Shown: positions 5,053 to 41,437 of the stretch, in pieces
How the letters are laid out: the number at the start of each line of letters is the position of its first letter
Numbering within the stretch: position 1 is the first letter of the stretch
Assembly: GCA_964493205.1 (NCBI GenBank)
Contig: CAZBMJ010000002.1
Coordinates: 50,238 to 114,237, forward strand
Length of the DNA: 64,000 bases
Origin: an uncultured Myxococcales bacterium
GTDB taxonomy: Bacteria > Myxococcota > UBA727 > JABDBI01
Direction of reading: 5' to 3'
Notes under the pieces: generated by a model
What the model was told of the DNA's origin: nothing
What the model saw: only the letters and a program-made list of their open reading frames with translations
Database searches by the model: none
Position numbers and translations under genes: made by a program

Positions 5053-6186
5053 CTATCTAGTCGTTACACCTTCATTGTTTGTTAACACAATGCTTGGCTC
5101 GGTATTACTTTCTTCTAAAGCTTTCACCGAATTTAAGGAATGTTTCATATTAGATTGCTCTAATAAGCGGCTGTATCTATAATACATGTTATTTTTTTGT
5201 CTTTGTTTAGTATTTACATTAATTTTAGGATTTATATCATGAATAGTGAGAAATAATATTTTTTTATTATCACCAGCATATTTAAATTGCAATCCTTTAT
5301 AATGTTTTACACGATTATTACAACAATTAGTAATATTTTGAACTTTTAAGTAGCTAATATCTCCAGTTCTAGAATTAGTATTTCTATCTAATATAGGAAA
5401 ATATTTTGGATATTTAATAGAATACTCTTGTATATCTATTGAACTTCTAAAAGTATTAATATATTTACCAAAAGTATCATATACTTCTATATAGGGAGTT
5501 CTGTTTTCTCTTGTTTTAATAGAAGATATCTTTCTAGCTTTTTTAAGTTCTTCAGAAATTGTTTTGGGAACTTTTAAATGATCAAATGTATAACCATTTT
5601 CTTTAGTTCTATTTTTAGAAGAATCTCTAGGAGTAATATAATATATTGCTAATTTCTTATATTTTTTAGGTACATCATCTACAGTTATTTCATTATTTTT
5701 TATTTTTTTTGAATAATTTATAGAAATATTTAAAGTTTCTTTAAAAGATTGTGCTCTTTTTTTATAAACTTCTTCTGAAAATTGATAACCTCCTGTTGCT
5801 TTAATATTAATATTGTAACTAAATTTTTTAGATATACATAAGTCATCTAAATATTTTTGTTCTCTATCGTGTAAAAATTCTAAATTATTAATTATTTCTA
5901 ATATTTCAAATTTAAAAATATTTTCTCCCCATTTATTATATGAAGATTGTAAATAATAATTTTTATGTTTTCCATTTTTTAGGTCTCTAGAATGCTCATT
6001 AAATCTATCTTTAAAAGATCTTCCTGTAGAGCCTACATAAATTTTATTGTTTTTTAAATTTGTAATTTTATAAATACCAAATTTTTCAAAATTGTCTAAA
6101 TTATCTACTATCATTTTATTATTTTTTATTACCACAAAGGTAATAAAAATAATTGTAAATATAGCGTAATAATTAAATTTTAACAT
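5053..6186 (-). CDS. GIY-YIG homing endonuclease inserted between the two DNA polymerase fragments
   Basis: FGIYKITNLKNNKIYVGSTGRSFKDRFNEH matches GIY-(N10)-YVG...R...H. The ATG lies 2 nt after the stop of the polymerase N-terminal ORF. Confidence 0.85.
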   Translation of the reverse strand: MLKFNYYAIFTIIFITFVVIKNNKMIVDNLDNFEKFGIYKITNLKNNKIYVGSTGRSFKDRFNEHSRDLKNGKHKNYYLQSSYNKWGENIFKFEILEIINNLEFLHDREQKYLDDLCISKKFSYNINIKATGGYQFSEEVYKKRAQSFKETLNISINYSKKIKNNEITVDDVPKKYKKLAIYYITPRDSSKNRTKENGYTFDHLKVPKTISEELKKARKISSIKTRENRTPYIEVYDTFGKYINTFRSSIDIQEYSIKYPKYFPILDRNTNSRTGDISYLKVQNITNCCNNRVKHYKGLQFKYAGDNKKILFLTIHDINPKINVNTKQRQKNNMYYRYSRLLEQSNMKHSLNSVKALEESNTEPSIVLTNNEGVTTR

Positions 6187-6190
6187 ATAT

Positions 6191-7348
6191 TTAACTACCG
6201 TAGGAACTATTTAATATAATTTTTAAGCAATGATTAATAATAGGATGTGTTTTCTTACTATATTTTTTTCTCTCATTAAAAGTATTTAAAAGAAATTTAC
6301 CATAACTTTCACCTAAATGAGCAGGCACTCTACCATGTTTCATAGCAAAATGAGGATAATATGAAACTTTATCCCAATCTAAAATTATATATTCTTCACT
6401 ACTTTGATATATACCAGGTTTTGTACTAAAATGTAGACCTCCAGCAGCATATACTATTTCACCATCATAATAAGGAATAATTTTACTAATTTGATTTTTT
6501 AAATTAATAAGTTTTTTATTACTATCAATATTAGATTTTATACTTGCATCAAGAGTTATATTTTTATAGAAATCTAAAGCAGATTTCAATACTGGATTAA
6601 CAAATTTATATTTATTAATATATGGTAATATTACTTCAGAAATAGCTATTTTTTCATTATATGTTTTCAGTTTTTTGACATCTGTTTCACTGATATTTAA
6701 ATCATAAGATAACTGTTTAACCATATATTTTTTAGCTATATCTGGTTCTGTAGAGTTAAGAAGATCTATTTTATTAAAATCTCCAAAATCTATTCTAAGT
6801 TTAAGTAGTTCTTTTGTAAATTTATATACATCTACAGTAGTTTCTACATCATATTTACAATATTTAACAATTTCTTCATCTTGTTTTTCTGTAAGTATAA
6901 GGTCATTAAAATGATAAGGTAAATCTTTAATAGATTTCTTCCTTAAAGAAAATTCTAATTTTTTTAATGATGTAGTTTTAGCACTACGAGGTCCAAAATT
7001 ATTTATAGACATTAAATCTATAGTCTTGTTGCAAAACTCTGATTCTCTATATATGGGCCACTCAGCACCTATATACTCATCATTAAAAGCTTTTATACCT
7101 TCATTGTTTATTGAAGGTCTCTTTGTAATATAAGTTAATATATTCATATCATAAAAAGAATTGTAACCCACAAAGTAAGTATCTTTTTCTTTTATAAGAT
7201 AGTTTTTTAACTTGTCTAATTCATTTATTTGAGTTACTCCATTTACTGTCCATAGTTTAAATGTTAAATATTCCTTGTTATAAGGATCATAAAACACTAC
7301 TAGAAAGTAATTAGGATATACTTCGCAGTCTAGGAAGATTAATCTCAT
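6191..7348 (-). CDS. Family B DNA polymerase, N-terminal fragment (3'-5' exonuclease domain plus palm motifs A and B)
   Basis: Exo I IFLDCEV; Exo II-like YNSFYDMNIL; Exo III YCKYDVETT. Motif A-like LDWDKVSYYPH (DxxSLYPS). Motif B KIILNSSYGS is followed directly by the stop codon. Confidence 0.75.
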   Translation of the reverse strand: MRLIFLDCEVYPNYFLVVFYDPYNKEYLTFKLWTVNGVTQINELDKLKNYLIKEKDTYFVGYNSFYDMNILTYITKRPSINNEGIKAFNDEYIGAEWPIYRESEFCNKTIDLMSINNFGPRSAKTTSLKKLEFSLRKKSIKDLPYHFNDLILTEKQDEEIVKYCKYDVETTVDVYKFTKELLKLRIDFGDFNKIDLLNSTEPDIAKKYMVKQLSYDLNISETDVKKLKTYNEKIAISEVILPYINKYKFVNPVLKSALDFYKNITLDASIKSNIDSNKKLINLKNQISKIIPYYDGEIVYAAGGLHFSTKPGIYQSSEEYIILDWDKVSYYPHFAMKHGRVPAHLGESYGKFLLNTFNERKKYSKKTHPIINHCLKIILNSSYGS

Positions 7349-8040
7349 ATCTTTCTATTTGTATATTGTAAAAATTTTATTATTTTTAATTTATCATAGT
7401 GAATATAATTATCACTTTTATTTTTATATATCCATATAAATCCTTTATATGTGTTTTTATAACCTGAACAACAAGAACTAATAGAACTTAATTTAAAATC
7501 GGGATGATCTTGATTAATTTCTTTTCTAGAAGAATATTGTTTTATAATATTTCTATTAATATCGCATTTTAAAATATAATATTTACTTTGAGAATTAGCA
7601 ATTTTTAAATAGTAATCATTTAATTCTTTTTTCGTAAATTTAGAATATCTTTCTTTTAATCTTAATCTATTTAAATTTTTAGTAGATTCTCTAACTATAT
7701 TACATTCATTACTATTATCTTCTTTACAATTATATCCATATAAAGAATTAGTTACATTATATTTTTTCATATAATGTAATTCTAACTGTTTAAGTAAATT
7801 TTCATCATATTCACTAATAGAAACTAATACATAATATTTGAAATTTTCTATACCATATTTATTTACAGAATTTAATAAATACTGATTTTCTTTCTTACTA
7901 TTATATTTAAAACATGCATTATGAGTAGAAATTCTTTGATAAATATTCTTACTCTGTCCTATATATTTCTTGTTATTTATAGTATTTTCAATACAATAAA
8001 TACCACTTTTATATCTATCTTCTTTTTTTAATTTTAACAT
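7345..8040 (-). CDS. GIY-YIG homing endonuclease
   Basis: SGIYCIENTINNKKYIGQSKNIYQRISTHN. ATGA overlap with the polymerase N-terminal ORF start. Confidence 0.85.
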   Translation of the reverse strand: MLKLKKEDRYKSGIYCIENTINNKKYIGQSKNIYQRISTHNACFKYNSKKENQYLLNSVNKYGIENFKYYVLVSISEYDENLLKQLELHYMKKYNVTNSLYGYNCKEDNSNECNIVRESTKNLNRLRLKERYSKFTKKELNDYYLKIANSQSKYYILKCDINRNIIKQYSSRKEINQDHPDFKLSSISSCCSGYKNTYKGFIWIYKNKSDNYIHYDKLKIIKFLQYTNRKI

Positions 8041-19988: not shown

Positions 19989-20059
19989 ATGATTTGCTAG
20001 GACTCGAACCTAAACTACAGAACCAAAATTTGTTGCATTACCAGTTATGTTACAAATAA
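19989..20059 (-). tRNA. Degenerate tRNA-like gene, possibly tRNA-Gln (TTG)
   Basis: Minus strand has a canonical T-arm TTAGG-TTCGAGT-CCTAG and an anticodon-loop-like TTTTGGT (T33, G37). The acceptor stem TTATTTG/CAAATCA has one mismatch, and the D and anticodon stems are imperfect. Confidence 0.4.
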
Positions 20060-20143
20060 GTATACTATATATTATAAATAGTTATTAATAATTCTTAAAT
20101 TTAGTCAAATATTTTTTGTATTTTTGTGTTATAAAATAATATT

Positions 20144-20764
20144 ATGACAAAAGAAATTTTAATACCATTAATAGAAAAAGGTCTTTCTACTTATAAAATA
20201 GCAAAAGAATTAAATTTAAGTAATTCCACTATTATATATTGGGTTAAATCTTTAGAATTATCTGATTTATATAAATCAATATCTCTTAGAGACAATTTAA
20301 AAAATACAATAAATTATAAATATTCTAAAGAAATTATAGAAGATTTTGCTAAAAATTCAAATTCATTATCAGAACTTCTTGAAAAGTTTAATCTTGTGCC
20401 ACGGGGTAGAAATTTTGATACAATAAAAAAATATATTAAATTACATAATATAGATATATCTCATTTCAATATTAATAAAAATAGAAAAGGTATAATTAAA
20501 GAACGTTCTATTAATAGTTATTTACATAATGAATTTAAAATAGGTAGTACTGCATTAAAGAAAAAACTTTATAAAACTAATCTAAAATTAAGAATTTGTG
20601 AGTTATGTGGTCAAGATGAGATATGGAATAATAAAAAAATGTCTCTTATATTAGACCATATAGATGGAAATTCTAATAATAATAATTTAAATAATTTAAG
20701 AATAGTTTGTCCTAATTGTAATGCTACTTTAGATACACATTGTGGAAAGAATAAACGTTCTTAA
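20144..20764 (+). CDS. HNH homing endonuclease with an N-terminal HTH
   Basis: CELCGQ...LILDHIDGNSNNNNLNNLRIVCPNCN matches C-x2-C...H...N...C-x2-C. The N-terminus YKIAKELNLSNSTIIYWVK is HTH-like. Confidence 0.7.
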   Translation: MTKEILIPLIEKGLSTYKIAKELNLSNSTIIYWVKSLELSDLYKSISLRDNLKNTINYKYSKEIIEDFAKNSNSLSELLEKFNLVPRGRNFDTIKKYIKLHNIDISHFNINKNRKGIIKERSINSYLHNEFKIGSTALKKKLYKTNLKLRICELCGQDEIWNNKKMSLILDHIDGNSNNNNLNNLRIVCPNCNATLDTHCGKNKRS

Positions 20765-20808
20765 ATTATTTAAACTAATGTACTACCATTATACTACAAA
20801 TCATTATA

Positions 20809-21006
20809 CTAACGGCTGTATTTAAGACAACCATTCTTAAGTTCTTTAGCTTTTGTATATCCTTTTTCTATCATATAATTTAGGATATCTAATTCATAAG
20901 ATAATAAGGATTCAAAATTCATTACTAAATCATCAAATGTGATCATGATTATTATTTTAAGATTAAGAAATATATAACCAGCTACCTCCGAAGAGGTAAC
21001 TGGCAT
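20809..21006 (-). CDS. Small hypothetical protein (65 aa)
   Basis: Short ORF at the edge of the GC-richer island. Weak support. Confidence 0.25.
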   Translation of the reverse strand: MPVTSSEVAGYIFLNLKIIIMITFDDLVMNFESLLSYELDILNYMIEKGYTKAKELKNGCLKYSR

Positions 21007-22465: not shown

Positions 22466-22918
22466 CTAAAAATGTTTGTTGTAAGTTAAAGGTTTAGGAA
22501 GTATTTCTTTTACCTTTCTATAAATTTGTACAGATGTAGGGTAGGTGTTATTTAAATAATAGAAGTTTAATAGCCATTTTTTAAATATATCCCATAATTT
22601 ATCATCTAGGTATTTAGCAGTATTATAGTAATTACCTGCAAACTTATTTTTTGTTTTGTGATGAAATCTTTGATAAGTTTTTTTTAAATTTAATTCATTA
22701 AATAATTCATCCATAACCTTAATAGGTTTTTCTTTTATTTGATTAGCAAACTCATAAATGTGATTGTTGTAAGAGTATATTAAACCTATACGTCTTGTTT
22801 CACCTAATATAAATAATTTAGCAATGGTTTTTAAATCATCTATTGAATTACTTGTTGCTATTGGTGATAAACCATCACCCCAACCACTCCAGCTTAAATA
22901 TAAAATATACTTGTTCAT
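22466..22918 (-). CDS. Hypothetical protein (150 aa)
   Basis: Complete ORF with typical AT-rich composition. Confidence 0.45.
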   Translation of the reverse strand: MNKYILYLSWSGWGDGLSPIATSNSIDDLKTIAKLFILGETRRIGLIYSYNNHIYEFANQIKEKPIKVMDELFNELNLKKTYQRFHHKTKNKFAGNYYNTAKYLDDKLWDIFKKWLLNFYYLNNTYPTSVQIYRKVKEILPKPLTYNKHF

Positions 22919-23240
22919 AACTATTTATTTAGAGGTTATAAAATCAAAAGAAAAGTATCAGGACCGTCAGAACCAGTAGTCCAGTTAAGAAGGATTAAGA
23001 CTGTGTAACAATAATACATATTAATGTCATAATTAGGTGATTTTGAGGTAAATTATAGTGAGTATATTTGTGATTGTAATGTATAGGAAGCTCTATCTGC
23101 AACCAAACAGTTGCATATTCATAACTCCTTGACTATCAAAGCCTTATCTCACAATAATTCTACCTAAATTTATACATAAAGCCTGACAAGTATAGCCTAA
23201 ATAGACTATAACTATATCACTAAAGGTATAAAATCACCCT

Positions 23241-23266
23241 ATATAATCAGAGTGATGGAGTACAAA
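23241..23266 (+). repeat. Direct repeat copy 1: ATATAAT-CAGAGTGATGGAGTACAAA
   Basis: A 26-nt unit recurs three times on the plus strand in an ORF-free interval. Each copy starts with a TATAAT-like hexamer. Confidence 0.6.
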
Positions 23267-23492
23267 AAATAATTAAACTAAAAGTAAACTAGCTTAACTT
23301 ACTTGACTCATGCTCTTCTCCTAAAAAGAATGATGATTAAATAAGCTAGCTAGTTTATTAAGTTATCTATTTTGCATCCCATGCAAGAGCATCTTCTCTT
23401 GTCATGATGATTCCATTAACTGATACCATAAGATTTATATTTAGAGGTGAATAATCTTATTAATGATGCAGTATAATTAAATATAACTGCAA

Positions 23493-23518
23493 ATATAAAC
23501 AGAGTGAAGGAGTACAAA
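23493..23518 (+). repeat. Direct repeat copy 2: ATATAAA-CAGAGTGAAGGAGTACAAA
   Basis: Followed by hairpin GGAGCA-TGAGC-TGCTCC and then ATTT at 23541-23561. Confidence 0.6.
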
Positions 23519-23599
23519 AAGAAAAAAAGTAACAACAGCTGGAGCATGAGCTGCTCCATTTAAACCACTGCCTTAGTGGTACTGTCTTACTGCGCAATG

Positions 23600-23878
23600 C
23601 TACAAAGCAGCAAAGTCTGCGTCAGCAAAAATGCTGTTAGCCTTGTCTGTAGCGTAGAATCTCTCTTCACCTTGGGCGTTAGCACCATGAATGATGGTTA
23701 ATCCTGTTAGTCTGTCACCTGCTTTAATCCCTGTGCCCTTAGCAGCAGAGATAAGAATCTCTTCACCTTTGGTGGTACGCACTGCACAAAGCAATACGTT
23801 CTTAGGACTAAGAGCAAAAGCAGAAGCTGTAGCAGCATCAAATGCAGCTTTGAATGTTTGAGTTGTGTAGGATGTCAT
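23600..23878 (-). CDS. Hypothetical Ala-rich protein (92 aa); GC-richer (~45%)
   Basis: MTSYTTQTFKAAFDAATASAFAL... Strong compositional contrast with the genome. Confidence 0.5.
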   Translation of the reverse strand: MTSYTTQTFKAAFDAATASAFALSPKNVLLCAVRTTKGEEILISAAKGTGIKAGDRLTGLTIIHGANAQGEERFYATDKANSIFADADFAAL

Positions 23879-23916
23879 GATTTAAAGGTTTAATGTTATG
23901 AAATATGTACACTCAA

Positions 23917-23943
23917 ATATATCTAGAGTGATGGAGTACAAAG
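23917..23943 (+). repeat. Direct repeat copy 3: ATATATCT-AGAGTGATGGAGTACAAA
   Basis: Third copy of the 26-nt unit, immediately 5' of the start of gene 23600..23878. Confidence 0.6.
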
Positions 23944-24010
23944 CTTAATTACCACAACCGCCTAAGCATCAGCAACAACGCATTAGCAGTTGCTACTAAC
24001 AATAGTAGTG

Positions 24011-24150
24011 AGCACAACACACAAGAACAAGACAACACACAACAACAGTTGCTACCATCACACAGTACACAGACAGACACTAGGAACACACAGCACACGC
24101 TGCAGGCTGCACTGCACAGGAACTAGCACAGAGCAAAGAGAAAACTAAAC
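24011..24150 (+). repeat. A+C-rich, T-depleted low-complexity tract
   Basis: CACAACACACAAGAACAAGACAACACACAACAACAG...ACACAGACAGACAC... has almost no T on the plus strand, in a genome that is ~70% A+T. Confidence 0.5.
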
Positions 24151-24159
24151 ATAACTTCT

Positions 24160-24214
24160 AGTACCCCACCCCCACCTTAAAAGTTTAGAGCAAGGGGGGG
24201 AGGTACTTTTTTTT
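24160..24214 (+). terminator. G/C-run hairpin plus T8; candidate plus-strand terminator
   Basis: GTACCCCACCCCCACCTT...AAGGGGGGGAGGTAC followed by TTTTTTTT. A second G-run GGGGGCGGGGG lies at 24222-24232. Confidence 0.45.
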
Positions 24215-24784
24215 AGCAAAAGGGGGCGGGGGTATAGTGGTACAAGTACACAAACTCAGTACCACATTATATTTTGTAACTACAGACACAAACTCATCTA
24301 CAAAATAATTTAAAATATATTATAAAGTCCGAAAGTCCAGTCCAGCTAAAACACTATATATCCTTCGGACTGGACTTAGATACCTATACCTAAAGAATAG
24401 TTTTTAATATTTTTTAAATTATTTTCATTTTACCCCCATTTATTAAATTTATTTAGCGTATCTTTGCACTATGTTTTTGAGCATAGACTCTGTACCTACA
24501 TTTTTGAGGAGAAATCCTGGTTTAATGTAATTATCAGATGCTGCTAATTATATAGTTCAAGTTCTGAGGATACACTTAATAGTAATGAAGTATCGTTCAA
24601 TAAAACTCCTAACCTAAGTCCTATGATATGGTGAAGAGCAAACTATCAAACAAGACTATATACAAAAACATCAGGCTGGTTAAAAGAAGTAACTGTGAAA
24701 TTTTCACCGTTTAAACCCCCTATGAGCTAGCGAGTAGGGTTTCCAAGATTGGATAGCTTGAGGTATATCTAAAATTAAGTAAAT

Positions 24785-25306
24785 ATGAGAATAGAGCCTA
24801 TTATAAAGGAACTAGAAGAAGTAAAAATAAGACTAAGTAAGTTACAAGATTCTTTAAAAGAGTTTGATGATACTGCTAATAAATATCGTCAACAACTAAT
24901 AATGAAGAGTACTCAATCTGAAAAAGTTATTAAGGTGAAACTTAAATCTCTAAAAATAGATTTTGAATTTCAAAAAATTATAAAAAATAATAAAGCTTTT
25001 AGAATTGTAGATTTTTATTTACCTAAATATAATCTTATTATAGAAGTAGATGGTTTTTATCATTCTGATAATGAACAAAGAGGTAAAGATTTAATAAGAA
25101 CTAATCAATTAGCTGATTTAGGTTACGATAAAATTCTAAGATTAGATAATATAAAAGCTAAAAATATAACAGAAGCTGATTTGTTGAAATTAATTAAATT
25201 AGCTAAGCCTATAAGAAAATCTACAAATAATAAATTACAAAAAATAATAAAATATAAGCAACGTATAGAGCAACTTGAAAAGCTAGTACGAGATTTAAGC
25301 AAATAA
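24785..25306 (+). CDS. Vsr/DUF559-like endonuclease-domain protein with an N-terminal coiled coil
   Basis: AFRIVDFYLPKYNLIIEVDGFYHSDNEQRGKDLIRTNQLADLGYDKILRL matches the ...IExDGxxH...D..R...L..GW.VLR core. Confidence 0.55.
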   Translation: MRIEPIIKELEEVKIRLSKLQDSLKEFDDTANKYRQQLIMKSTQSEKVIKVKLKSLKIDFEFQKIIKNNKAFRIVDFYLPKYNLIIEVDGFYHSDNEQRGKDLIRTNQLADLGYDKILRLDNIKAKNITEADLLKLIKLAKPIRKSTNNKLQKIIKYKQRIEQLEKLVRDLSK

Positions 25307-25328: not shown

Positions 25329-25366
25329 AAATCCTTAATCTTTTATTAGATTAGGGATTTTTTTGT
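25329..25366 (+). terminator. Rho-independent terminator
   Basis: AAATCCTTAATC-TTTTATTA-GATTAGGGATTT with one mismatch, followed by TTTTTTTG. Confidence 0.6.
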
Positions 25367-25416
25367 TTTACCTAATATATGTCAATTATTTTTCGTAACT
25401 TTGTGTAAATTTAAAT

Positions 25417-26229: not shown

Positions 26230-26622
26230 ATGAAAACATATAAACCTTTACCTGATAATCTAACTATTAAACCTAGCTCTATACATGGACTAGGTGTATT
26301 TGCTACAGAAGATATACCACTTCAAAATACTTACGTATTTTTAGGTTATACTCACTACGTAATAGAAGGAACTTTATATAGAGTAAATTATGGTGGATTC
26401 ATTAATCACTCTAATGATCCTAATTGTAAATTATTTCCTATTAGTAAAGAAGAAGATTATGAAGCTTTTCAAATGGTTACAATCAAGGATATTAAAGCAG
26501 GAGAAGAGTTAACCTTAGATTACACAAGGGAGTTATGTGGATTAACAGGATATGAAGATGCTGATTTTTTAAAAGAAGAATTTAAATCATGTTTAAGTGA
26601 TATTGAAAAATATGGATTTTAA
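26230..26622 (+). CDS. SET-domain protein lysine methyltransferase-like (130 aa)
   Basis: GFINHSNDPNCKLF matches the NHSCDPN motif and GEELTLDYT matches the GEELTxDY motif. Confidence 0.7.
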   Translation: MKTYKPLPDNLTIKPSSIHGLGVFATEDIPLQNTYVFLGYTHYVIEGTLYRVNYGGFINHSNDPNCKLFPISKEEDYEAFQMVTIKDIKAGEELTLDYTRELCGLTGYEDADFLKEEFKSCLSDIEKYGF

Positions 26623-26978: not shown

Positions 26979-27256
26979 TGAAAGTAATTGAGATAAGTTT
27001 AGAAGATTATAATAAACTAGAACTTAAACCTATCTTTGAAGAGTTAAACGTTGAGTATGTGTTAGGAGGTTATTATGGATTAACTAAATTAAGAAAAGAA
27101 GAATTCTTTAGTGAATTAGAAATGATTCATATACCTGGTTTTGATAATTCAATGTTCTTCTTTTTAAGAAGGGATATTCCAGGAACTAATCAATCATATA
27201 GTTTAATTCTCTATAGTGGAGTAAATATAGTAGGACATATAAAAATAAAAATATAA
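26975..27256 (+). CDS. Hypothetical protein (93 aa)
   Basis: Complete ORF. Its stop overlaps the start of the vWA gene. Confidence 0.4.
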   Translation: MMKVIEISLEDYNKLELKPIFEELNVEYVLGGYYGLTKLRKEEFFSELEMIHIPGFDNSMFFFLRRDIPGTNQSYSLILYSGVNIVGHIKIKI

Positions 27257-27864
27257 TGAAAACAATTTGTAATTTAATTTTAGTAGATGCATCAGGAAGT
27301 ATGCAAAATAGAGTATCAGATGTTAAAGGTGGTTTAATGAAACTATTCTCTGATATTAAGGAAGAAAAGGAACTTAATCAGCATACTATTGTATGTGATT
27401 TTTCTAATGATTTTAATGTACTCGTTAATACAGTAGATTCTAAGCTTTTAACTTCAGAAATGATAGATAAGTATAAAACTAGAGGATCAACTTCATTATT
27501 TGATGCTATTAAGAAATCATTTGAATTAGTTCCAAAAGGAGTAGATGGTGTATTTGTATCTATTATAACTGATGGAGAAGAAAACTCTTCTGTAGAATGT
27601 AATTCAACTCAAGTAAAACAATTAATATCTTTAGGTAAAGAAAATAAATGGGGTATTACGTTTATGGGGTGTGATGAGAAAGCATTAGATATAGCTAAAT
27701 CCATAGGTATAAATAGTATACTACAATTTGCAGATAATGCATTAGGTTATGAGAAAGCAAGTAAAGAAAGAAGTTTTGCTTATGCAAGTTATACATCTAG
27801 CGTTAAAAAAGCAGTTACATTAGATGAGATTCAATCTGATGATTTATTCACTAAACCAAATTAA
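27256..27864 (+). CDS. von Willebrand factor A (vWA) domain protein
   Basis: MIDAS LILVDASGSMQNR. Then ...STSLFDAI... and ...VSIITDGEEN. Confidence 0.75.
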   Translation: MKTICNLILVDASGSMQNRVSDVKGGLMKLFSDIKEEKELNQHTIVCDFSNDFNVLVNTVDSKLLTSEMIDKYKTRGSTSLFDAIKKSFELVPKGVDGVFVSIITDGEENSSVECNSTQVKQLISLGKENKWGITFMGCDEKALDIAKSIGINSILQFADNALGYEKASKERSFAYASYTSSVKKAVTLDEIQSDDLFTKPN

Positions 27865-27978: not shown

Positions 27979-28814
27979 TAAAAATCATACTTAATTTTTC
28001 TTGGAATAATACTCTCTATTTCCTTCTTCATGTATTCAAATCTATATGGTTTGTTTAGATGTGTAAATCCCAGATATCTAGGAGTAAATCCTCCTTGCTC
28101 TAATAACCACGCATACGCACTTATCTGTAGTCTATAATGGTTGTAGTTACAGCAGCCTAAATGGTCTAAAGGACTTAACATTTTACCGCCATAAAAATTA
28201 GCAGTTTTTATTTCCTTATTAGTCTTATGATCATCTATATCTATATACCTTACTCCTTTAATAGTATCTATAAATACAAGGTCTGCTTGTCCTGCTATTT
28301 TAACCTCTGAATTCCATAATATACATTCAGGATGAAAACCATCTTCTAAATCTATTAGTTGTTTAACAGAAGAAGTTCTAACTTCCTCTCCTTTCTTAAA
28401 TTCAATAATACTAGAAGGAATAGTCTTACATTCTATATTAGTGTAAGGATTAATACACACACCACTTCTTAAAGCTTGTTGTTCTTTAAATGTGTGATAA
28501 TCATTTCCTTTTTTAATAGAAGCATTTCTCTTATCTTCCCATTCTTCTAATATCTCTTTGATAACAGGTGCTACAAGCTCATCAGAGACCACTGAGCGAA
28601 AGAAATTTATAATCCTAGGATCAGTATGATGAAGTCCTGAGATTTGTCTCAGACGCTTAAACTCTCCTTTACCTAAAATCCTTTCATAAGCTTTATACTT
28701 ACTGTAGTGATCTCCCATAAAAGGACGCTTGTACTTACCTATCAAAGTACTAACAGAAGTATATACTTCATTCTCTAGTTCGTAAGTGTGTAATTTTGAA
28801 TTAAATTTTATCAT
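27978..28814 (-). CDS. PD-(D/E)xK-type nuclease-like protein; low confidence
   Basis: GQADLVFIDTIKGVRYIDIDDHKT is D...(D/E)xK-like. A Cys cluster LGCCNYNHY is also present. Confidence 0.4.
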   Translation of the reverse strand: MIKFNSKLHTYELENEVYTSVSTLIGKYKRPFMGDHYSKYKAYERILGKGEFKRLRQISGLHHTDPRIINFFRSVVSDELVAPVIKEILEEWEDKRNASIKKGNDYHTFKEQQALRSGVCINPYTNIECKTIPSSIIEFKKGEEVRTSSVKQLIDLEDGFHPECILWNSEVKIAGQADLVFIDTIKGVRYIDIDDHKTNKEIKTANFYGGKMLSPLDHLGCCNYNHYRLQISAYAWLLEQGGFTPRYLGFTHLNKPYRFEYMKKEIESIIPRKIKYDF

Positions 28815-28962
28815 ATATTTATTATTTTACTCATTTAACTGCAAAGTTACAACAAAAAAATGACTTATTTTGTATATTATCCTATTTTTTTAACATAGAA
28901 ATTAATAATACCCTTCTTTTTTAAATATATTTTTCGTAACTTTGCACTAAAGTTAGAAAGCA

Positions 28963-29322
28963 ATGAAGATAATTAAACTAAATTCTAAATATGAACTACT
29001 ATCTATAATGATAGACTTAGCTCTTATTTTAAAATTACCTAAAGAATTTGGTCTTAGAGATAGAGAAAAGGAATTTCTAATACATACTATTATATTGTCT
29101 AATGAAGGTTATACTTTAGAAAGCGCAGAGATGGTAAAGACCATAGCAAAGCTTATGAACATTAAACCTGATGATGTATATAATTATAGAAAGATTCTAA
29201 AAAATAAAGGATGGTTAGTTCAAACTATAGATGGTTTTGAATTATTAAGTGCTTTAGATTATACAGATAGAGATATTCCTAATGATATAGAAATTAAATA
29301 TAAACTATCAGTAGCAAGATGA
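28963..29322 (+). CDS. Hypothetical protein (119 aa)
   Basis: Complete ORF. First gene of the plus-strand small-gene operon. Confidence 0.4.
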   Translation: MKIIKLNSKYELLSIMIDLALILKLPKEFGLRDREKEFLIHTIILSNEGYTLESAEMVKTIAKLMNIKPDDVYNYRKILKNKGWLVQTIDGFELLSALDYTDRDIPNDIEIKYKLSVAR

Positions 29323-33217: not shown

Positions 33218-33731
33218 AGGAAATCCTCAACATGATTTTAAAGAGCAGAATCCTCTTATATGTACTATAAGGGGATTTTCTGATGTATATACTAAACATA
33301 AACCAGAGATAGCATCTAAGATATGTTGGGCAATGTTTATGATAGAAGAAGCAGATCAAGAAGATAATCCTTTAGCTAGAATAAGCAATATCAAAGAAAG
33401 AACAGAAGAAGTACAAAAATCTTATTATAAGATAGATACAACAACACAAGAATATAAAAACTTAGTAGATGATTTTTCTAAATTTGCTTTAACAAAAGAG
33501 CAAACACTTTATAGAATACATGTACGTAAGTTTGAAGAAATGACATCTTATCTAGATACTCTGTCACTAGATGATGATAAACAGTTTGGTAAGTATATCC
33601 AAATTATGGATAAACTAAGTAAAATGTGGGCAGGATTAGAAATAGTAAAAGAGAGAATGGTTGAAGCAAAAAGTAAAAATAGAATTAGAGGAAATGCTCA
33701 ACTATCTGTAAGAGAGAAAAGGAAACGATAA
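33204..33731 (+). CDS. Putative terminase small subunit, assigned by position only
   Basis: 175-aa protein with a basic C-terminus (RIRGNAQLSVREKRKR), immediately upstream of and overlapping the large terminase. Confidence 0.3.
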   Translation: MSVIKGNPQHDFKEQNPLICTIRGFSDVYTKHKPEIASKICWAMFMIEEADQEDNPLARISNIKERTEEVQKSYYKIDTTTQEYKNLVDDFSKFALTKEQTLYRIHVRKFEEMTSYLDTLSLDDDKQFGKYIQIMDKLSKMWAGLEIVKERMVEAKSKNRIRGNAQLSVREKRKR

Positions 33732-36061
33732 TGAGTATTAAGTTAGTAAGATTATTTCCAGAGCTTTTTAATATTAAACCTTTTGTAATAGGAGATCATC
33801 CAATATATCATCCTGAGACAAAAGATTATTTAGACTACTGGGAAGAGCAAGAGAAGAGATGTATAGAGGGATTATGGGGATTAGATAAGAATGATAATGA
33901 AGGAGGATGGAGATTCTGTCCTCCTGTTCTATACTATTATATTAACTTTTGTGTAATAGAACATGAAGATGAAAGAAATAACTCAACCATAATATTACCA
34001 CCTAGTCTAAGAGATGTAGAGTGGTTATTTTTTTATAACTGGTTTATATGTAGAGGTTTCTCAGGATTTGAAGGTGATTATGAATATACATGTCATGAGT
34101 TAATAAGAAAATTAGAATCAGGAGAAAAACTTAATACTAAAGAAATATTAAAACTACAAAGAGCAGAAGGTGTTTTAAAACCTGATGGTAGTTATAAGAA
34201 ATTTATACATCCAAGAGAATACTTATATAAGACATTTGATAAACCTCTAGGTCTTCCGTTATATGCTAATGAAGCTAAAAACTTAATGGCACTTACACCT
34301 AGACGACAAGGTAAATCAATGTGGCTTATGGCAATACTTTCTCATGCATTTAAGTTCCATGGTGCTATTAGATTTGACCAAGAATACTTTAATCTTACAA
34401 GAGGTCCAAGTATTCTTATAGGTTCAGTATTAGCTAAAGCAGCAGATACACTTAAACACTTTTCATTCTTAGAAGAGTATCAAAAACATAATTTTGGTGC
34501 ATGGGGAGATGGTGATGACTTTATTCCTGGCTACTTCTTTCAACAAGTATCAGGTTCTTTAACTGTATCTAATCAGAAATCTCCTTATAGAAATGAATAT
34601 GAAGAAAGAATAAATGGAGTAGTAACTAAGCAAGGTAAAGGAACTAGAATAGTTCATGTTACTTATGAAGATAACCCAGAAGCAGCAGTAGGACAAGGAC
34701 CTATTATTTCTATTATAGAAGAAGTAGGTCTATTAACATCTCTACTTAAAGTATTAGGAGCTAATGAACCTGGTCTTACCAGGAACAATAAATTTGGTTC
34801 TCACTTACTCATAGGTACTGCAGGTAACATGGAACGTATATTTGAGTCCAAGATGGTATTTGAAGAACCAGAAACATATAAGTTTCTAGGTTTTGAAGAC
34901 TTATGGGAAAACAGACAAAAGGAAATAGGATTATTTATTCCAGGATATTATGTAGATAATGCATTAAGAGATCCTCAAGGCAATCAAAACTTAGAGGCAG
35001 CTTTTGAATTAGAAATGCAAGAAAGAGCTAGATTATCTAAAGCAGATAATTCATATGCATTAGACGCATATATGATGGCTAGACCACTAGTTCCTTCTGA
35101 AATGTTTTTATCAGGACAATCTAATATATTTCCTGTATCTTTACTTAGAGATCAGCTTAATAGAGTAGAAATAAGAGACTTATTTAATAGTCTTACTTAT
35201 AAAGGAGAACTAGAGTGGAATGAAAGTAAAACAGGAGTTAAACTAAAACTAGATTTTAACAATCAGCTTAAACCTATTATTAGTATGAAGCTAGATCAAT
35301 ATAAATCTAGTCTAAAAGGTTGTATTGTTTTTTATGAAGCACCTGAAGAAAATATACCTATTCCTACACAAAAGAGGTCTCTTTACAAAATAGTCTATGA
35401 CCCTGTAAGAGATGATGTTGTAGGTACTTCCTTAGCTGCTATACTCGTATATAAGAGTACTTCAGAAGATGGATGGGCACTAGGTCTACAAGATGCTTTA
35501 GTAGCAGAATATATAGGAAGAGTAGATAAAGTAGATGATATGCATCAAATAGCAATTAAACTAGCTATTTATTACAATGCTAAAATTATGGTAGAAACAA
35601 ACATACCAGATTTTGTACGTTATTGTAAGAATAATGGTTTTGCACATCTTCTACAAAGAAAACCTATGAAAACTATCTCTAAGTCTGTTAAAGACCCAGG
35701 AAATAAGTATGAAGTAGGTATAGATATGACATCACCAGCTCTTCATGAACATGCAGAACAACTAGGAAGACAATGGTTACTTACAGAATGGAAAACAGAT
35801 AGTACTGGTGAAACATTACTTAACTTACATAAATTAAACTCTCCTATGATACTTCAACAACTTATGATGTATACAAGAGAAGACAAGAAAAGATATGATG
35901 CTGTTGCAGCACTCAAGTTACTTTGGTTATGGCTTAAAGAAGAAAAAGAAGAGCCTGTTAAACAAGAAGCTAGAGAAGCAGCAATAGAAACAGTTGAAAT
36001 GTATTATAACAAATTAACTAGAAAACAACAAACTACTAACGTTAATTACTACACGTATTAA
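33731..36061 (+). CDS. terL: Terminase large subunit
   Basis: Walker A of terminase type LTPRRQGKSMW. Length 776 aa. Followed by portal-sized and capsid-sized genes. Confidence 0.7.
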   Translation: MSIKLVRLFPELFNIKPFVIGDHPIYHPETKDYLDYWEEQEKRCIEGLWGLDKNDNEGGWRFCPPVLYYYINFCVIEHEDERNNSTIILPPSLRDVEWLFFYNWFICRGFSGFEGDYEYTCHELIRKLESGEKLNTKEILKLQRAEGVLKPDGSYKKFIHPREYLYKTFDKPLGLPLYANEAKNLMALTPRRQGKSMWLMAILSHAFKFHGAIRFDQEYFNLTRGPSILIGSVLAKAADTLKHFSFLEEYQKHNFGAWGDGDDFIPGYFFQQVSGSLTVSNQKSPYRNEYEERINGVVTKQGKGTRIVHVTYEDNPEAAVGQGPIISIIEEVGLLTSLLKVLGANEPGLTRNNKFGSHLLIGTAGNMERIFESKMVFEEPETYKFLGFEDLWENRQKEIGLFIPGYYVDNALRDPQGNQNLEAAFELEMQERARLSKADNSYALDAYMMARPLVPSEMFLSGQSNIFPVSLLRDQLNRVEIRDLFNSLTYKGELEWNESKTGVKLKLDFNNQLKPIISMKLDQYKSSLKGCIVFYEAPEENIPIPTQKRSLYKIVYDPVRDDVVGTSLAAILVYKSTSEDGWALGLQDALVAEYIGRVDKVDDMHQIAIKLAIYYNAKIMVETNIPDFVRYCKNNGFAHLLQRKPMKTISKSVKDPGNKYEVGIDMTSPALHEHAEQLGRQWLLTEWKTDSTGETLLNLHKLNSPMILQQLMMYTREDKKRYDAVAALKLLWLWLKEEKEEPVKQEAREAAIETVEMYYNKLTRKQQTTNVNYYTY

Positions 36062-36063
36062 AG

Positions 36064-38586
36064 ATGAATGAAAATAATAATTTAGGTGTACCTATTAGTC
36101 ATGCTAGCATAAAGAGACATAAAACTTCTTATGAGCAAAAAAAATCTAATGACTGGGCATGGTTAAAGGAATGGATAGATTACTTTTGTAATTCTGTTCA
36201 TTTAGACTCAGAAGAAATAGAAAAAATTCTTCTTAACTATAGACTTTATAATGGGAGAGGTGTTTATAAAACACAAGTAGATTCTCCAATGATGAGTAAA
36301 GATTTAGAAGAAGAAGGTTACTATTTTAATAGCGAAGATATTCCTCACTTTGACATTATAACACCTATTGCTAAATCCTTATATGGACAGCAACAATTAA
36401 TGCCTTTTAAACCTATAGTTACAGATTCTTCTTTTAACAATGTAAACTCTCGTAAGAAGAAAAGAATAGAACTATTCCAAGAATACATAAATGAAACTAT
36501 AATCAATCCTACTAGAGAACAAGCTATGCAGGAATGGTTACTAGAAAATCAAATAGAAGATATAAACATGCTGCCTCCTGATATGCAGGAACAAGCACAA
36601 TCTCAAATACAAGGTAAGTCTCAAGCTATGATGCCTGAAGATATAGACAGGTATATGGCTTCAGATTATAAATCTCCTAGAGAAACACAACTACAACAAA
36701 TAACAGAATTCACTATTAGGAGAGATAAGTTAAAATTCTGGACAGATGAAAACTTTAAACACTTACTTATATCAGGTGGACAGTTTTATGAAACATGTAT
36801 AAGACATAAAAAAGCTTTTACTAGAATTTGTAATCCTATAGGATACACATCTGGTGGTCCAGAGGATGCTATGTTTGAGGAAGATAAAGATTGGCAAATA
36901 TATGAAGAGCAAATTACTTTAGCTACTTTATTTAGAGACCATGGTGCTGAAATAACAGAAGGAGATCTTAAAAAACTAAGAGAATTTGATCCTACTACTT
37001 CTACAAGAAATAGAGGAGAGTTTCCAGAACCTATGGCTACTAAGTTAGCAGAGTTTGATGCAGAAACAGGTATATTTGATTTTGCACCTAAAAATCTTAA
37101 AACAAGAGAAGGACAAGATTTCTTATTAGGTCTTTATGCTAAATTTGGAAACATAAACTCTAATGATAAGTTGTTTACAAGAAAAACAGTAGCTTTTAAA
37201 TCTCTTAGAAAATTTAAACTAGTTACTAGATATGATATCAAAAAGAATACTTATGAAGAATTCTGGGTAGATGGAGCATATCAAAAAAATCCTAAAAAGG
37301 ATATCAAAGTAGATACGCACTGGTTTCCTCATGCTTTTATGGGAAGGAGAGTAGAATTTGGTTCTGCAGATAACTATTTATATTTTGATTTAGGTCCAGT
37401 ACCTAATCAGTATAAAAGTGTGTTAGAACCATGGAATATAACAATGCCTTTCATGGGTGTTAAGTATTCTACTCTATTTGGAAATACACCTAATGTAGCT
37501 CCAATGGATTTAGCTAAAAAATGGCAAGATAAATTCAACATTAAGTTAGCACTTATACAAGAAAAAGAAAATACAGATGTAGGTAGAATATTTGCTATAG
37601 CTACATCACTTAAACCTAAAGATTGGTCTTTTGCTAAGTGGATGACTATGGCTAAGTATGGTAAGATATTACCATTAGATACCAATGGAGAGATGATGAA
37701 TGGTATAGATGCTCAAATATTTAAAACATTTGACCTTAGACAAATAGATGAAATATCTCAACACCTTCAACATTTAGATTGGATTAGACATCAAGCTGCT
37801 CTAGCTATGAACTATAATCCACAAAGACTAGGACAAATAGTTTCTTCTGAAGCTGTTAGAAATAGTCAACAAAATATACAACAATCTACATATCAAACAC
37901 AAGACCTATTTACTCTTCATAATGAAGTAGTAGAAAGAGTTTTAAATCGTCACATTAATAATGAGCGTATAGCTCTTATGGATAATGACTTTGTAGCATC
38001 TTATGTGTTAGATGATATGTCTATTGCTGAACTTAATCTAGATAAAGAACTTCTAGATGCTGCAGAAGTAGGAATTATCTTAAGAAACTCTTCAGAAGAT
38101 TTCAACAACCTTAGAGAGATTAAACAAGATAGTCAAGCTATGATACAAAACGGAATGATAACATTCCCAGAGTACATTAGACTTAAAATGGCTAATAATA
38201 TGGCAGATGCTCTTAACATAGCAGAGAGAGCTGAGAAGAAATTATTACAAAGACAACAAGAACAACAACAAGCTCAAGCTGAACAAGCACAACAAATAGA
38301 ACAAATGCGTGCAGATCTTGAGAGAGAAAAAGTAGAGCGTGAAGCTTCTAATAAAGCTGCTGAAAGAGAGTCTCAAGAGTTTAGAGAGAAAATTAGAGCT
38401 ACTATGATGGCTAATCAAATGGATATAGACAAAGATGGTAGAAGTGATATCTTACAAGTTAAAGATATGGATAGTATAGAAAAATCTAAGGATAGAGATT
38501 TAGATGAAAAACTTTTAGATAAAAAACTTAAAGCTGATATGGAGAGAGAACGCATAAAAGCTAAAAGTAAAACAAAAACAACATAA
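36064..38586 (+). CDS. Putative portal protein (840 aa), by position and size
   Basis: Directly follows terL. C-terminal Q/E-rich coiled coil QQQEQQQAQAEQAQQIEQ. Confidence 0.45.
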   Translation: MNENNNLGVPISHASIKRHKTSYEQKKSNDWAWLKEWIDYFCNSVHLDSEEIEKILLNYRLYNGRGVYKTQVDSPMMSKDLEEEGYYFNSEDIPHFDIITPIAKSLYGQQQLMPFKPIVTDSSFNNVNSRKKKRIELFQEYINETIINPTREQAMQEWLLENQIEDINMLPPDMQEQAQSQIQGKSQAMMPEDIDRYMASDYKSPRETQLQQITEFTIRRDKLKFWTDENFKHLLISGGQFYETCIRHKKAFTRICNPIGYTSGGPEDAMFEEDKDWQIYEEQITLATLFRDHGAEITEGDLKKLREFDPTTSTRNRGEFPEPMATKLAEFDAETGIFDFAPKNLKTREGQDFLLGLYAKFGNINSNDKLFTRKTVAFKSLRKFKLVTRYDIKKNTYEEFWVDGAYQKNPKKDIKVDTHWFPHAFMGRRVEFGSADNYLYFDLGPVPNQYKSVLEPWNITMPFMGVKYSTLFGNTPNVAPMDLAKKWQDKFNIKLALIQEKENTDVGRIFAIATSLKPKDWSFAKWMTMAKYGKILPLDTNGEMMNGIDAQIFKTFDLRQIDEISQHLQHLDWIRHQAALAMNYNPQRLGQIVSSEAVRNSQQNIQQSTYQTQDLFTLHNEVVERVLNRHINNERIALMDNDFVASYVLDDMSIAELNLDKELLDAAEVGIILRNSSEDFNNLREIKQDSQAMIQNGMITFPEYIRLKMANNMADALNIAERAEKKLLQRQQEQQQAQAEQAQQIEQMRADLEREKVEREASNKAAERESQEFREKIRATMMANQMDIDKDGRSDILQVKDMDSIEKSKDRDLDEKLLDKKLKADMERERIKAKSKTKTT

Positions 38587-39898: not shown

Positions 39899-41437
39899 AT
39901 GGCACGATTAAAACCTACTAAGTGGGAGATATACGAAGAATCAGCTAAACAAGCACCTTATGGTAACTTTATTAGTGAGAATGTTCTTCTTGTAAATCAT
40001 CCCAATTCAAAAAAAGCTGCTGTATTAACAGATAGTGTAATGCAATACGCTGCTACAGCAAGACCTGCGTTAAGTGGGAAAAAAGCTACATTATGGGATT
40101 CTCTTGTTGGTAAAGGTAGAGAAAGAACTGTAGATGCAGATGAAGTAGAATGGTCACTAAAAGGTTCAGGAAAAATAGAAACACTAGCTAAGGAAAACCT
40201 TATGCCAGGTGTACTATTTCCAGGACATAATGGTGATGAATTTCAGATTAAATTAGATAATCCTAACTTTGTTCCTGGTGATACTTTAGCACCAGAGATA
40301 GCATGGGATCAACAAATGATAGTACAATATCTTCCTATTAAAGATGGTTTAGACTGGATTTATACAGGTAAGTTAGTTACTTTAGATCCTAATGCATATT
40401 TTGATCCAGAGCTTTTAACAGCAGGATTAAAATGGATTAAAATAGGTGCAGCTTATTCAGAATACTCTTCTGGTTATGGTAGCTTCCAAACTACAGGTAA
40501 TACTTCTTATATCAAGTTTAAAACTTGGTTAAGTGACTGGGGTAAGAGAGCAGAAGTAACTAATAAGGCACATGATCTTAATTTAGTTCTAAAACCTATA
40601 GATGATAAAGGAGTAGTCATTAATGGCATTCCTCAACAAGTTATCTCATGGGTAGAAGCAGAGTTTCTAGTAGAATCTAAATGGGAAAAAGAACTAATGT
40701 GCTGGTATGGTAGAGCTGCTGGTAAAAATATTATAGATCATACTTCAGGACTACACAGACGTATAGGACCAGGTGTGATGGAATTCATGGAAGATGCAAA
40801 CATCATAACTTATCCTTTAGGAAACTTTAGCATAGATGCGTTAGCAGAATTTATGATGGAAGTAGGCTGGGATACAATTTCTGCTGAAAATGCAAACATT
40901 GTAGTTAAAACAGGTAGAATGGGTATGAAGCAAGCTAGTGACTCTATTAGAGAGTTATATACTATGCTTAATATAAATGTTCCATTTGAAAAATATGTAA
41001 GTTCAGGTAATACTTATCCTGGTTCTAATAGCCCAGGTTATAAAGTATTGAGTCCTCACTTCTTGCAAGTAGATTTAAATCCTTTTGGTTCATTAACATT
41101 TGAACACTTACCTATCCTAGATAACAGAGAACTTAATGGAGGTATTGTGCATCCTGATACAGGATTACCACTTACATCTTACATGTACTTTGTAATGGAT
41201 TATGGTCTAGGTTCTCATGGTAACGTAGAGCTTTTGAGGAAAAAAGATTCAGAAGTATTCACTTATATTTGTGGTACATGGTCTCCAGTAGGTCCTATTA
41301 ATGGAAAAACAGGTAGAGGAGGTTTCATGGCATCTCATGATAGAAGGTCATATGATTTAGTAGCTGCAGATACCTTTGGTGTAAGGATTAAAGATGTTAA
41401 TCTTTGTCTTATGTTGCTACCATCAGTAGGATATTAA
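39899..41437 (+). CDS. Putative major capsid protein (512 aa), by position
   Basis: Large gene after the scaffold-like gene. No SD. Normal composition. Confidence 0.4.
   Translation: MARLKPTKWEIYEESAKQAPYGNFISENVLLVNHPNSKKAAVLTDSVMQYAATARPALSGKKATLWDSLVGKGRERTVDADEVEWSLKGSGKIETLAKENLMPGVLFPGHNGDEFQIKLDNPNFVPGDTLAPEIAWDQQMIVQYLPIKDGLDWIYTGKLVTLDPNAYFDPELLTAGLKWIKIGAAYSEYSSGYGSFQTTGNTSYIKFKTWLSDWGKRAEVTNKAHDLNLVLKPIDDKGVVINGIPQQVISWVEAEFLVESKWEKELMCWYGRAAGKNIIDHTSGLHRRIGPGVMEFMEDANIITYPLGNFSIDALAEFMMEVGWDTISAENANIVVKTGRMGMKQASDSIRELYTMLNINVPFEKYVSSGNTYPGSNSPGYKVLSPHFLQVDLNPFGSLTFEHLPILDNRELNGGIVHPDTGLPLTSYMYFVMDYGLGSHGNVELLRKKDSEVFTYICGTWSPVGPINGKTGRGGFMASHDRRSYDLVAADTFGVRIKDVNLCLMLLPSVGY

Follow-up and report, generated by a model that had tools for sequence, protein, structure and literature searches.

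We analysed a stretch of 64,000 nt of contig CAZBMJ010000002.1 (the window; 28.3% GC), which is part of the genome of an uncultured crAss-like phage. Its structural genes are of crAss-like type, with the large terminase at 33731-36061, the portal at 36064-38586 and the major head protein at 39899-41437, and the nearest cultured relative as judged by the large terminase TerL is Cellulophaga phage phi14:2, at 32% identity. The genes of the window are arranged in two arms, those left of ~23.9 kb lying mostly on the minus strand and including the DNA polymerase and tRNAs, and those right of 24.8 kb lying mostly on the plus strand. Our subject is the intergenic switch region between these arms, which an initial reading made from the sequence alone (hereafter the sequence-only reading) had placed at 23950-24784 and which lies between the start of a minus-strand open reading frame (ORF) of 92 amino acids (23878) and a plus-strand ORF beginning at 24785.

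By composition this region is unusual beyond what chance would give. Among all 140-nt segments in the 64 kb, that at 24010-24149 has the lowest T content (7.9%, against a mean of 34.3% with a standard deviation of 6.6%) and that at 24011-24150 the highest A+C content (75%), and within the same tract the trinucleotide ACA peaks at 24 per 140 nt, compared to 2.8 +/- 2.2 window-wide. The earlier description of this tract as almost only A and C was nevertheless an overstatement, as its bases are A 45%, C 30%, G 17% and T 8%. The tetranucleotide GTAC reaches its window maximum here as well, with 8 occurrences in 23901-24300 where the mean is 1.25 per 400 nt, and 6 of the 11 runs of at least five G or C in the window, the sole G7 included, fall within 24169-24720. 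The individual sequences quoted in the sequence-only reading are all found where it located them, namely GTACCCCACCCCCACC at 24161-24176, GGGGGGGAGGTAC at 24194-24206, T8 at 24207-24214 and GGGGGCGGGGG at 24222-24232.

For comparison we used seven relative lineages from ENA/Logan assemblies, the only collections that yielded relatives. Two of their contigs come with a named sample type, wastewater in both cases (ERZ27275549 and ERZ27280352, which are wastewater-plant records), and three, L154, L156 and L158, represent more distant relatives, with homologues of a 138-aa protein that are 45-58% identical. A blastn search against INPHARED found no relative, and the exact 17-mer of the promoter repeat described below gave only chance matches in IMG/VR. 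IMG/VR and JGI metagenomes were also scanned, without result, using the 92-aa protein, a 166-aa protein and an alignment of the 92-aa protein as guides, a search for the hairpin pattern in IMG/VR and metagenomes returned homopolymer artefacts only, and a 16-mer scan of genome contigs, for which the query is too short, gave at least 119 chance matches and none that was related. An exact look-up of the 92-aa protein gave nothing of use in the search for relatives; a protein identical to it is recorded on an NCBI contig of 138,768 bp. Its AlphaFold model, with a pLDDT of 42, could not be used.

The early arm, on the minus strand, is headed by a family of promoter-like repeats. A 17-mer, TTGTACTCCATCACTCT, occurs three times in the window, each time on the minus strand (at 23941, 23517 and 23265), a copy number reached in 0 of 100 shuffles, and a repeat search recovers these copies as a 35-nt family. 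In the first two, P1 and P2, the 17-mer is followed by TATATTTG, which reproduces the Bacteroidetes arrangement TTG-N17-TAnnTTTG with the -33 TTG placed 17 nt from a -7 box (23921-23914 in P1, 23497-23490 in P2), and in the third, P3, the TTTG of the -7 box is missing. P1 (23914-23951) heads the 92-aa first gene of the early arm (23878-23600) and is conserved in the L018 and L027 clades, with 79-82% identity between clades. An inverted repeat, CACTC...GAGTG, was seen by eye in P1 only, and the copies share no hairpin. At the opposite side of the region, the late arm is preceded by a perfect plus-strand -7 box, TATCTTTG, at 24459-24466 (P+), which has no TTG at -33; a perfect TAnnTTTG stands at the homologous site in L014, L018, L154, L156 and L158, that is, in all five lineage types examined. 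The proposal that the region holds divergent promoters is borne out, because both a minus-strand TTG-N17-TATATTTG (23941-23914) and the -7 box of the late arm (24459-24466) can be identified.

A diverged fourth copy of the repeat, P0 (24217-24245, minus strand), lies 304 nt upstream of P1 and consists of TTGTAC (24245-24240), CCCCCGCCCCC and TTTTG (24221-24217), its C-rich spacer appearing on the plus strand as G5CG5. In 128 kb, counting both strands of the window, there are only six matches to TTGTAC-N15-20-TTTG, three of them located here on the same strand. In L156 and L158 the homologous element, CACCCCCTATACTTTTG in the early direction, was returned independently by a repeat finder as copy 1 of a four-copy repeat, and this P0 equivalent features a full -7 box, TACTTTTG. 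Copies in the window start at 24245, 23941, 23517 and 23265, with spacings of 304, 424 and 252 nt, the corresponding values for L156 being 299, 318 and 431 nt and those for L158 301, 449 and 298 nt, so that a tandem early-arm family is found with copies ~250-450 nt apart that share a -33 block and TTTG. A deletion in L015 ends just upstream of P0.

Two observations concern the DNA downstream of these first copies. Over ~680 nt following the 92-aa gene (22919-23600), which contain P2 and P3, there is no ORF of more than 47 aa, and further short non-coding early transcripts may arise from this interval. Moreover, a plus-strand promoter-like site, TTG-N17-TATATTTG, is present at 23037-23070, convergent with P3 and conserved in L013 and L014; it would yield transcripts antisense to the early units.

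The G-runs form part of a bipartite element (24194-24232) composed of (G)CAA-G5-7-AGG, three nucleotides, a T-rich stretch, (G)CAAAAG and G5, which aligns in all seven lineages. In each of the distant relatives, too, the switch region is where runs of at least five G or C are concentrated. In four alleles of the window and L018 clades, a C-run (24164-24176) pairs with the G7AGG segment (24194-24203) to give a hairpin followed by T8 (24161-24214), with a 12-pair stem, a loop of 13-17 nt, an A-tract on the 5' side and folding energies of -19.6 kcal/mol in the window, -19.0 in L014 and -13.7 in both L018 and L027. In RNA, U7-8 would follow the stem in all four alleles with 0-4 unpaired nucleotides between, and T8 is the only plus-strand T run of at least six in 23000-24300. 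The stem is kept across alleles that are 58-63% identical, its outer part being rebuilt from different bases in L014, and it was missed by a simple terminator scan because of its long loop. Read rightward, the hairpin and T8 are by their sequence a canonical intrinsic terminator; on the minus strand, they would give the P0 unit a stem-loop at its 5' end. The C-run exists only in the window and L018 clades, and the hairpin is therefore not found wherever the element is conserved: L154, L156 and L158 keep the bipartite element without the upstream C-run. The hairpin could be a later addition serving as rightward terminator, 5' stem-loop or both. For an alternative pairing between the C-run and the distal G-run (24222-24232), two wobble positions favour the minus strand, but folding energies do not.

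Between P0 and P1 lies the AC-rich, T-depleted tract (23950-24160), which viewed on the minus strand is the GU-rich, A-poor body of a putative non-coding unit, unit 1. In the window, L014, L018, L156 and L158, the first two promoter copies enclose a unit 1 of ~260-270 nt, and in every lineage that has it the GC content is raised (37-46% versus 28% for the genome) and the A content lowered (15-30% versus 37%). In the window, A on the minus strand amounts to 8% in the 140-nt core and 15% over the ~268-nt unit. Alleles of the tract from different clades share 52-54% identity, their alignment includes 20 gap positions that do not come in multiples of three, and no stop-free stretch is common to the lineages on either strand. 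L013 and L017 have a predicted 76-aa ORF spanning the tract, the frame of which is interrupted in the window and L014, and open frames of this kind are compositional artefacts, since depletion of T on the plus strand and of A on the minus strand removes stop codons. A protein-coding tract, on either strand, is rejected given the absence of a shared ORF and the clade indels that are not multiples of three.

Several other candidate identities for the tract were also rejected. As the template repeat of a diversity-generating retroelement it would need a second copy, and the best match at non-A positions, 0.56, is noise (64 kb searched of a ~139-kb genome); as a small RNA (sRNA) with an antisense target, it has no complementary target in the window; and as a tandem-repeat, ToxI-like RNA, it shows only a weak 10-nt period by Tandem Repeats Finder (TRF). 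No match to Rfam 15 covariance models was obtained across 22800-24900 even at E <= 5, and folding prediction leaves the plus strand of the tract with essentially no structure (z = -1.8, with the terminator alone in the centroid), so that a structured non-coding RNA (ncRNA), as first suggested, is not supported. Folding of the minus strand of the window gives z = -2.7 to -3.6. The tract does belong to a non-coding unit of conserved position, and such a unit on the minus strand is plausible. The related idea that the dense ACA motifs serve as targets of a MazF-like, ACA-specific mRNA interferase requires plus-strand transcription of the tract and is unsupported; if the tract is transcribed from P0, the RNA would be UGU-rich and A-poor rather than ACA-rich.

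To the right of the hairpin, a hypervariable spacer (24266-24384) lies within an indel hot spot (24240-24390) and holds the palindrome that the sequence-only reading had singled out at 24326-24377. The palindrome is present, with arms at 24333-24343 and 24367-24377, and is better described as AGTCC/GGACT units nested in a longer AT-rich inverted repeat (I2) upstream of the plus-arm promoter, whose own arms (24302-24326 and 24401-24425) are 92% complementary and of which the right one is conserved in L014-L016. The palindrome itself is absent from L014, L015, L018 and L019, and the aligned stretch is 164 nt long in the window versus 121 nt in L014, a difference of 43 bases. Its 11-nt terminal inverted repeats and its presence/absence polymorphism are those of a miniature inverted-repeat element, but the multiple dispersed copies typical of such elements are not found, as it occurs once in the window and has no exact copy in IMG/VR. 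Folded as single-stranded DNA, the 135-nt segment at 24296-24430 that contains the inverted repeat gives z = -5.5.

The segment that follows P+ (24467-24700, plus strand) is a candidate leader or non-coding RNA, to judge from its conservation at the nucleotide level. For 220-230 nt beyond the -7 box, L014-L016 match it at 100% identity and L018 (at 130-408) at ~72%, and it can still be aligned in L154 (985-1232), whose 138-aa homologue is only 45% identical; it is the best-conserved nucleotide segment within 23950-24784. L156 and L158 are without it. A conserved block at 24630-24667 has stops in all three frames, as seen by eye, and the fold of the segment is unremarkable (z = 0.18). At the head of the leader is a mini-ORF, MF[LF]SIDS, whose start nearly coincides with the predicted transcription start.

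Beyond the leader, the first plus-arm ORF (24785-25306; Pfam DUF559, E = 1.8e-10) constitutes a second strain-specific insertion. L014-L016 join the equivalent of window position 24799 straight to 25283 and have a 12-codon remnant ORF, MRIEPLVRDLSK, so that the window carries a 483-nt in-frame insertion (161 codons, 24800-25282, plus strand) with the body of a DUF559/Vsr-like endonuclease. The ORF looks like a mobile homing-endonuclease-type gene. By eye, a hairpin and then T7 (about 25340-25375) and a TAACTTTG box (25396-25403) lie 3' of it. Elsewhere in the window, mobile-endonuclease genes are dense at 5053-8040 on the minus strand, where a homing-endonuclease-like ORF (5053-6186) and a GIY-YIG ORF (7345-8040) flank a 385-aa DNA-polymerase fragment (6191-7348), and an HNH ORF is found on the opposite strand at 20144-20764 (+).

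Taken together, these features support, with modest confidence, a model where the region is probably a non-coding control module at which the minus-strand early/replication arm and the plus-strand structural arm diverge, made up of repeated promoters, a hairpin terminator, non-coding units and two strain-specific insertions. In this model the early arm would be headed by tandem promoter repeats ~250-430 nt apart, of which P0 would be the most upstream copy, the C-run of its spacer being read on the plus strand as G5CG5. The plus-strand T8 would then correspond to the A-rich start region of P0, and the plus-strand G7AGG to a conserved CCTCCCCC at about +10 to +25 of the P0 unit. The ~270 nt from P0 to P1 would represent a non-coding unit with a GU-rich, A-poor sense strand, and the AC tract would be its opposite strand. 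The hairpin may act in both directions: for rightward transcription, it would, together with T8, stop antisense transcripts, such as those from 23037-23070 (+), before they reach P+, and for leftward transcription it would give unit 1 a 5' stem-loop. To its right, the module would continue with the hypervariable spacer and its extra palindrome, P+, the conserved leader and the mobile DUF559 ORF.

A number of findings weigh against this model, in particular as regards P0 and unit 1. The -7 box of P0 lacks TA in both the window and L018 clades (CCCCTTTTG and CCAGTTTG, the former being that of the window), and host sigma-A polymerase may consequently not use it; P0 may be inactive or be served by another polymerase, and it could be a defunct promoter that was co-opted as a terminator. 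The bipartite element of L154 lies ~75 nt upstream of the first early gene, and there is no unit 1. Folding z-scores of unit 1 range from 0.1 to -4.6 across lineages, are inconsistent and do not separate the strands, and RNAalifold on both strands, with an effective number of ~3 lineages, gave no informative covariation. The extreme depletion of A/T is specific to the window clade, being weaker in L018, and its 140-nt extreme is absent from L154, L156 and L158, so that it may have no function of its own. Finally, identity between the window and L014 is a mosaic in which blocks of 100% abut blocks of 70%, and the perfect identity of part of the tract therefore points to recombination rather than constraint.

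Among alternatives to the control module, the one that survives best, which we nonetheless regard as unlikely, is that the AC tract is transcribed on its plus strand into an unstructured, U-poor RNA with more C than G that ends at the hairpin and T8. Such an RNA could be a free sRNA, acting as a CA-rich sponge or decoy for a protein, or the terminal 3' part of a ~1.1-kb antisense transcript initiated at 23037-23070; in the antisense form the tract would also act as a rut-like zone for the loading of Rho, and the late arm would be insulated by the element as a whole. The canonical form of the terminator, the T7-8 invariant in its four alleles and the absence of any other plus-strand T run of at least six in 23000-24300 all agree with this proposal, as do the full promoter-like sequence at 23037-23070 with its conservation in L013 and L014 and the predicted lack of plus-strand structure outside the terminator. 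Further points in its favour are the hexamer AGCACA, which has six copies on the plus strand of the window, three of them within the tract, and is enriched in the tracts of L018 and L027 too, and a plus-sense TATATTTG box at the start of the L018 tract. The window clade, however, has no plus-strand Bacteroidetes-type -7 box directly upstream of the tract, and the missing complementary target in the window is a further point against. In addition, G-runs and T-rich stretch persist in L156 and L158 without a C-run partner, and the conservation of the element is hence not explained by a plus-strand terminator. CrcZ of Pseudomonas is an example of a CA-rich protein-sponge sRNA, and the tract, if its plus strand were transcribed, would resemble such RNAs in being unstructured and A/C-rich, with repeated short motifs and a terminator end, but it differs from them by having no tandem motif array. 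In Bacteroidetes, which are not known to use sponge partners of the Hfq/Crc or CsrA type, there is no known partner protein for CA-rich sponge sRNAs, and this too counts against a rightward RNA.

A more specific proposal, built on the leftward unit of the control module, attributes function to the composition itself: unit 1 would be a dedicated early ncRNA made from an unusual promoter copy with C-runs on either side (G-runs on the template strand), its A-depletion and GU-richness would be functional in this clade, and the G-runs on both sides of the start site would form a structural switch. We consider this combination improbable. Were it true, the RNA could avoid the cleavage motifs (ACA, AAAU) of A-dependent host endoribonuclease toxins, or, alternatively, could be an R-loop-forming primer.

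The suggestion that the region contains a replication origin, or more broadly an R-loop priming zone or the physical end of the genome, appears very improbable to us. In an origin, G-clusters, followed leftward by a non-template strand that is rich in G, would promote a lasting RNA-DNA hybrid from which DNA synthesis is primed, and the AT-rich inverted repeat would be the element that unwinds. The cumulative GC-skew minimum of the window does coincide with the region, at 24-25 kb; the G-runs are followed by a tract with a minus-strand GC skew of +0.27 (from base counts); and the inverted repeat is capable of forming a cruciform. However, genes that run against their arm, at 28001-29000 and 20001-21000, show the skew of the strand on which they lie, and the inflection is thus explained by coding-strand bias and offers no independent evidence of an origin. 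The palindrome, being strain-specific, is ruled out as a conserved origin core, the repeat search showed no iteron array apart from the promoter repeats, and what remains near a possible unwinding element is a generic AT-rich inverted repeat; the extreme GT/AC bias, moreover, is absent from distant relatives. With respect to a genome end, contigs of three relatives (L013, L017 and L026) terminate inside 24183-24237, in the G-run/hairpin region, and the linear genome of crAss001 has its early genes at one end (PMC8375218). These contig ends could reflect strain heterogeneity, trouble in assembling homopolymers or a real terminus, and the hypervariable spacer and homopolymer runs account for them equally well. 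A G-quadruplex at the G-runs, the other structure raised at the outset, is poorly backed by in silico prediction, which finds no canonical motif (four tracts of at least three G, loops of 1-7 nt) on either strand. The window maximum of G4Hunter (1.76) is located here, but the sole candidate arrangement of G3+ tracts, at 24194-24232, has a 21-nt central loop, and G7 is more plausibly engaged in the hairpin than in a quadruplex.

We give equally little credence to the view that the region is largely neutral spacer in which only the promoters and hairpin are functional, the G-runs answering terminator and promoter needs for GC-rich parts in a 28% GC genome and the tract composition being a lineage-specific accident (decayed low-complexity sequence or a recombination import): the tract does diverge fastest (52-54% between clades, against 79-82% for P1), its compositional extreme is clade-specific, its identity is mosaic, and it yields no Rfam match, no target and no consistent fold signal, but a unit of ~260-270 nt with raised GC and lowered A recurs at the same place in the window, L014, L018, L156 and L158, and neutral sequence in this genome would be expected to drift toward 72% A+T.

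Setting the control module beside known systems brings out both likenesses and differences. Its promoters resemble those recognised by Bacteroidetes sigma-A, as P1, P2 and the site at 23037-23070 (+) fit TTG-N17-TATATTTG and P+ has a perfect -7 box. The spacer of such promoters is usually cited as ~19 nt; that of the window copies is 17 nt, and these copies share a 14-nt spacer sequence, TACTCCATCACTCT, that a host sigma factor does not need, while P0 departs from the consensus in lacking TA and P3 in lacking TTTG. N4-like phages have clustered, near-identical early promoters at the leading end of the genome, which are used by a virion RNA polymerase. The window copies are comparable in being near-identical, clustered at the head of the early region and carried by a phage with a virion RNA polymerase; they differ in that they share no hairpin and that their motif looks host-type. 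As to intrinsic terminators, including bidirectional ones between convergent units, the hairpin matches them in its GC-rich 12-pair stem, its U7-8 within 0-4 nt and its 5' A-tract, and it diverges from them in its long loop (13-17 nt) and in the conservation of the 3' arm and T-tract where the 5' arm is missing.

The closest experimental comparison is with phi14:2. [quoted passage not shown] The same -7 box type is carried upstream of phi14:2 g070, g075, g092, g093 and g110, with an upstream TTG also present at g070 and g075. Both phages are crAss-like, and both have several hundred ORF-free nucleotides near the head of the early arm. They differ in that transcription was measured in phi14:2 and the units of the window are known from sequence alone, and further in that the phi14:2 regions show no sequence similarity to the window and no comparable A/T-depleted tract (minimum T 0.20). 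In the course of this comparison we observed that phi14:2 (L012, NC_021806.1) contains at 4031-4502 a gene for transfer-messenger RNA (tmRNA), detected by ARAGORN and Rfam and with the tag GSSVQKLAMVA*, which lies in one of the two reported highly expressed long non-coding RNA regions and for which the RefSeq record has no RNA feature; no tmRNA was found at the locus studied here, which is another difference between the two. The switch region of phi14:2 (L025 47480-47640; record 97900-98060) features G6, C5 followed by T6, and a GGGGAGTATCCCC hairpin, among the few runs of at least five G or C in that genome; homology of these runs to those of the window could not be shown, and their orientation relative to the arms differs.

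Some neighbouring genes of the two arms are also of note. On the minus strand, a 556-aa protein (12200-13870) matches PHROG 850 ('RNA-binding protein') and Pfam DUF7788, and its gene adjoins tRNA-His (14622-14696); the early module of crAss001 includes a TROVE-domain protein, and a partner RNA for the PHROG 850 protein of the window is conceivable. The first genes of the plus arm include two, at 26230-26622 and 27256-27864 (+), that encode a SET-domain protein (E = 4.9e-14) and a protein with a von Willebrand factor A domain.

Overall, three attractive readings of this locus, as a replication origin, a G-quadruplex switch and a MazF decoy, are removed as unsupported, and the region is an otherwise ordinary, compositionally striking regulatory intergenic region. 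Its interest lies in the fact that the start of the infection programme of crAss-like phages is poorly understood and the early promoters of their virion RNA polymerase are undefined. For uncultured metagenomic relatives, the region offers a sequence-defined family of tandem promoters, a conserved start-site element bracketed by G/C runs and two position-conserved non-coding units.

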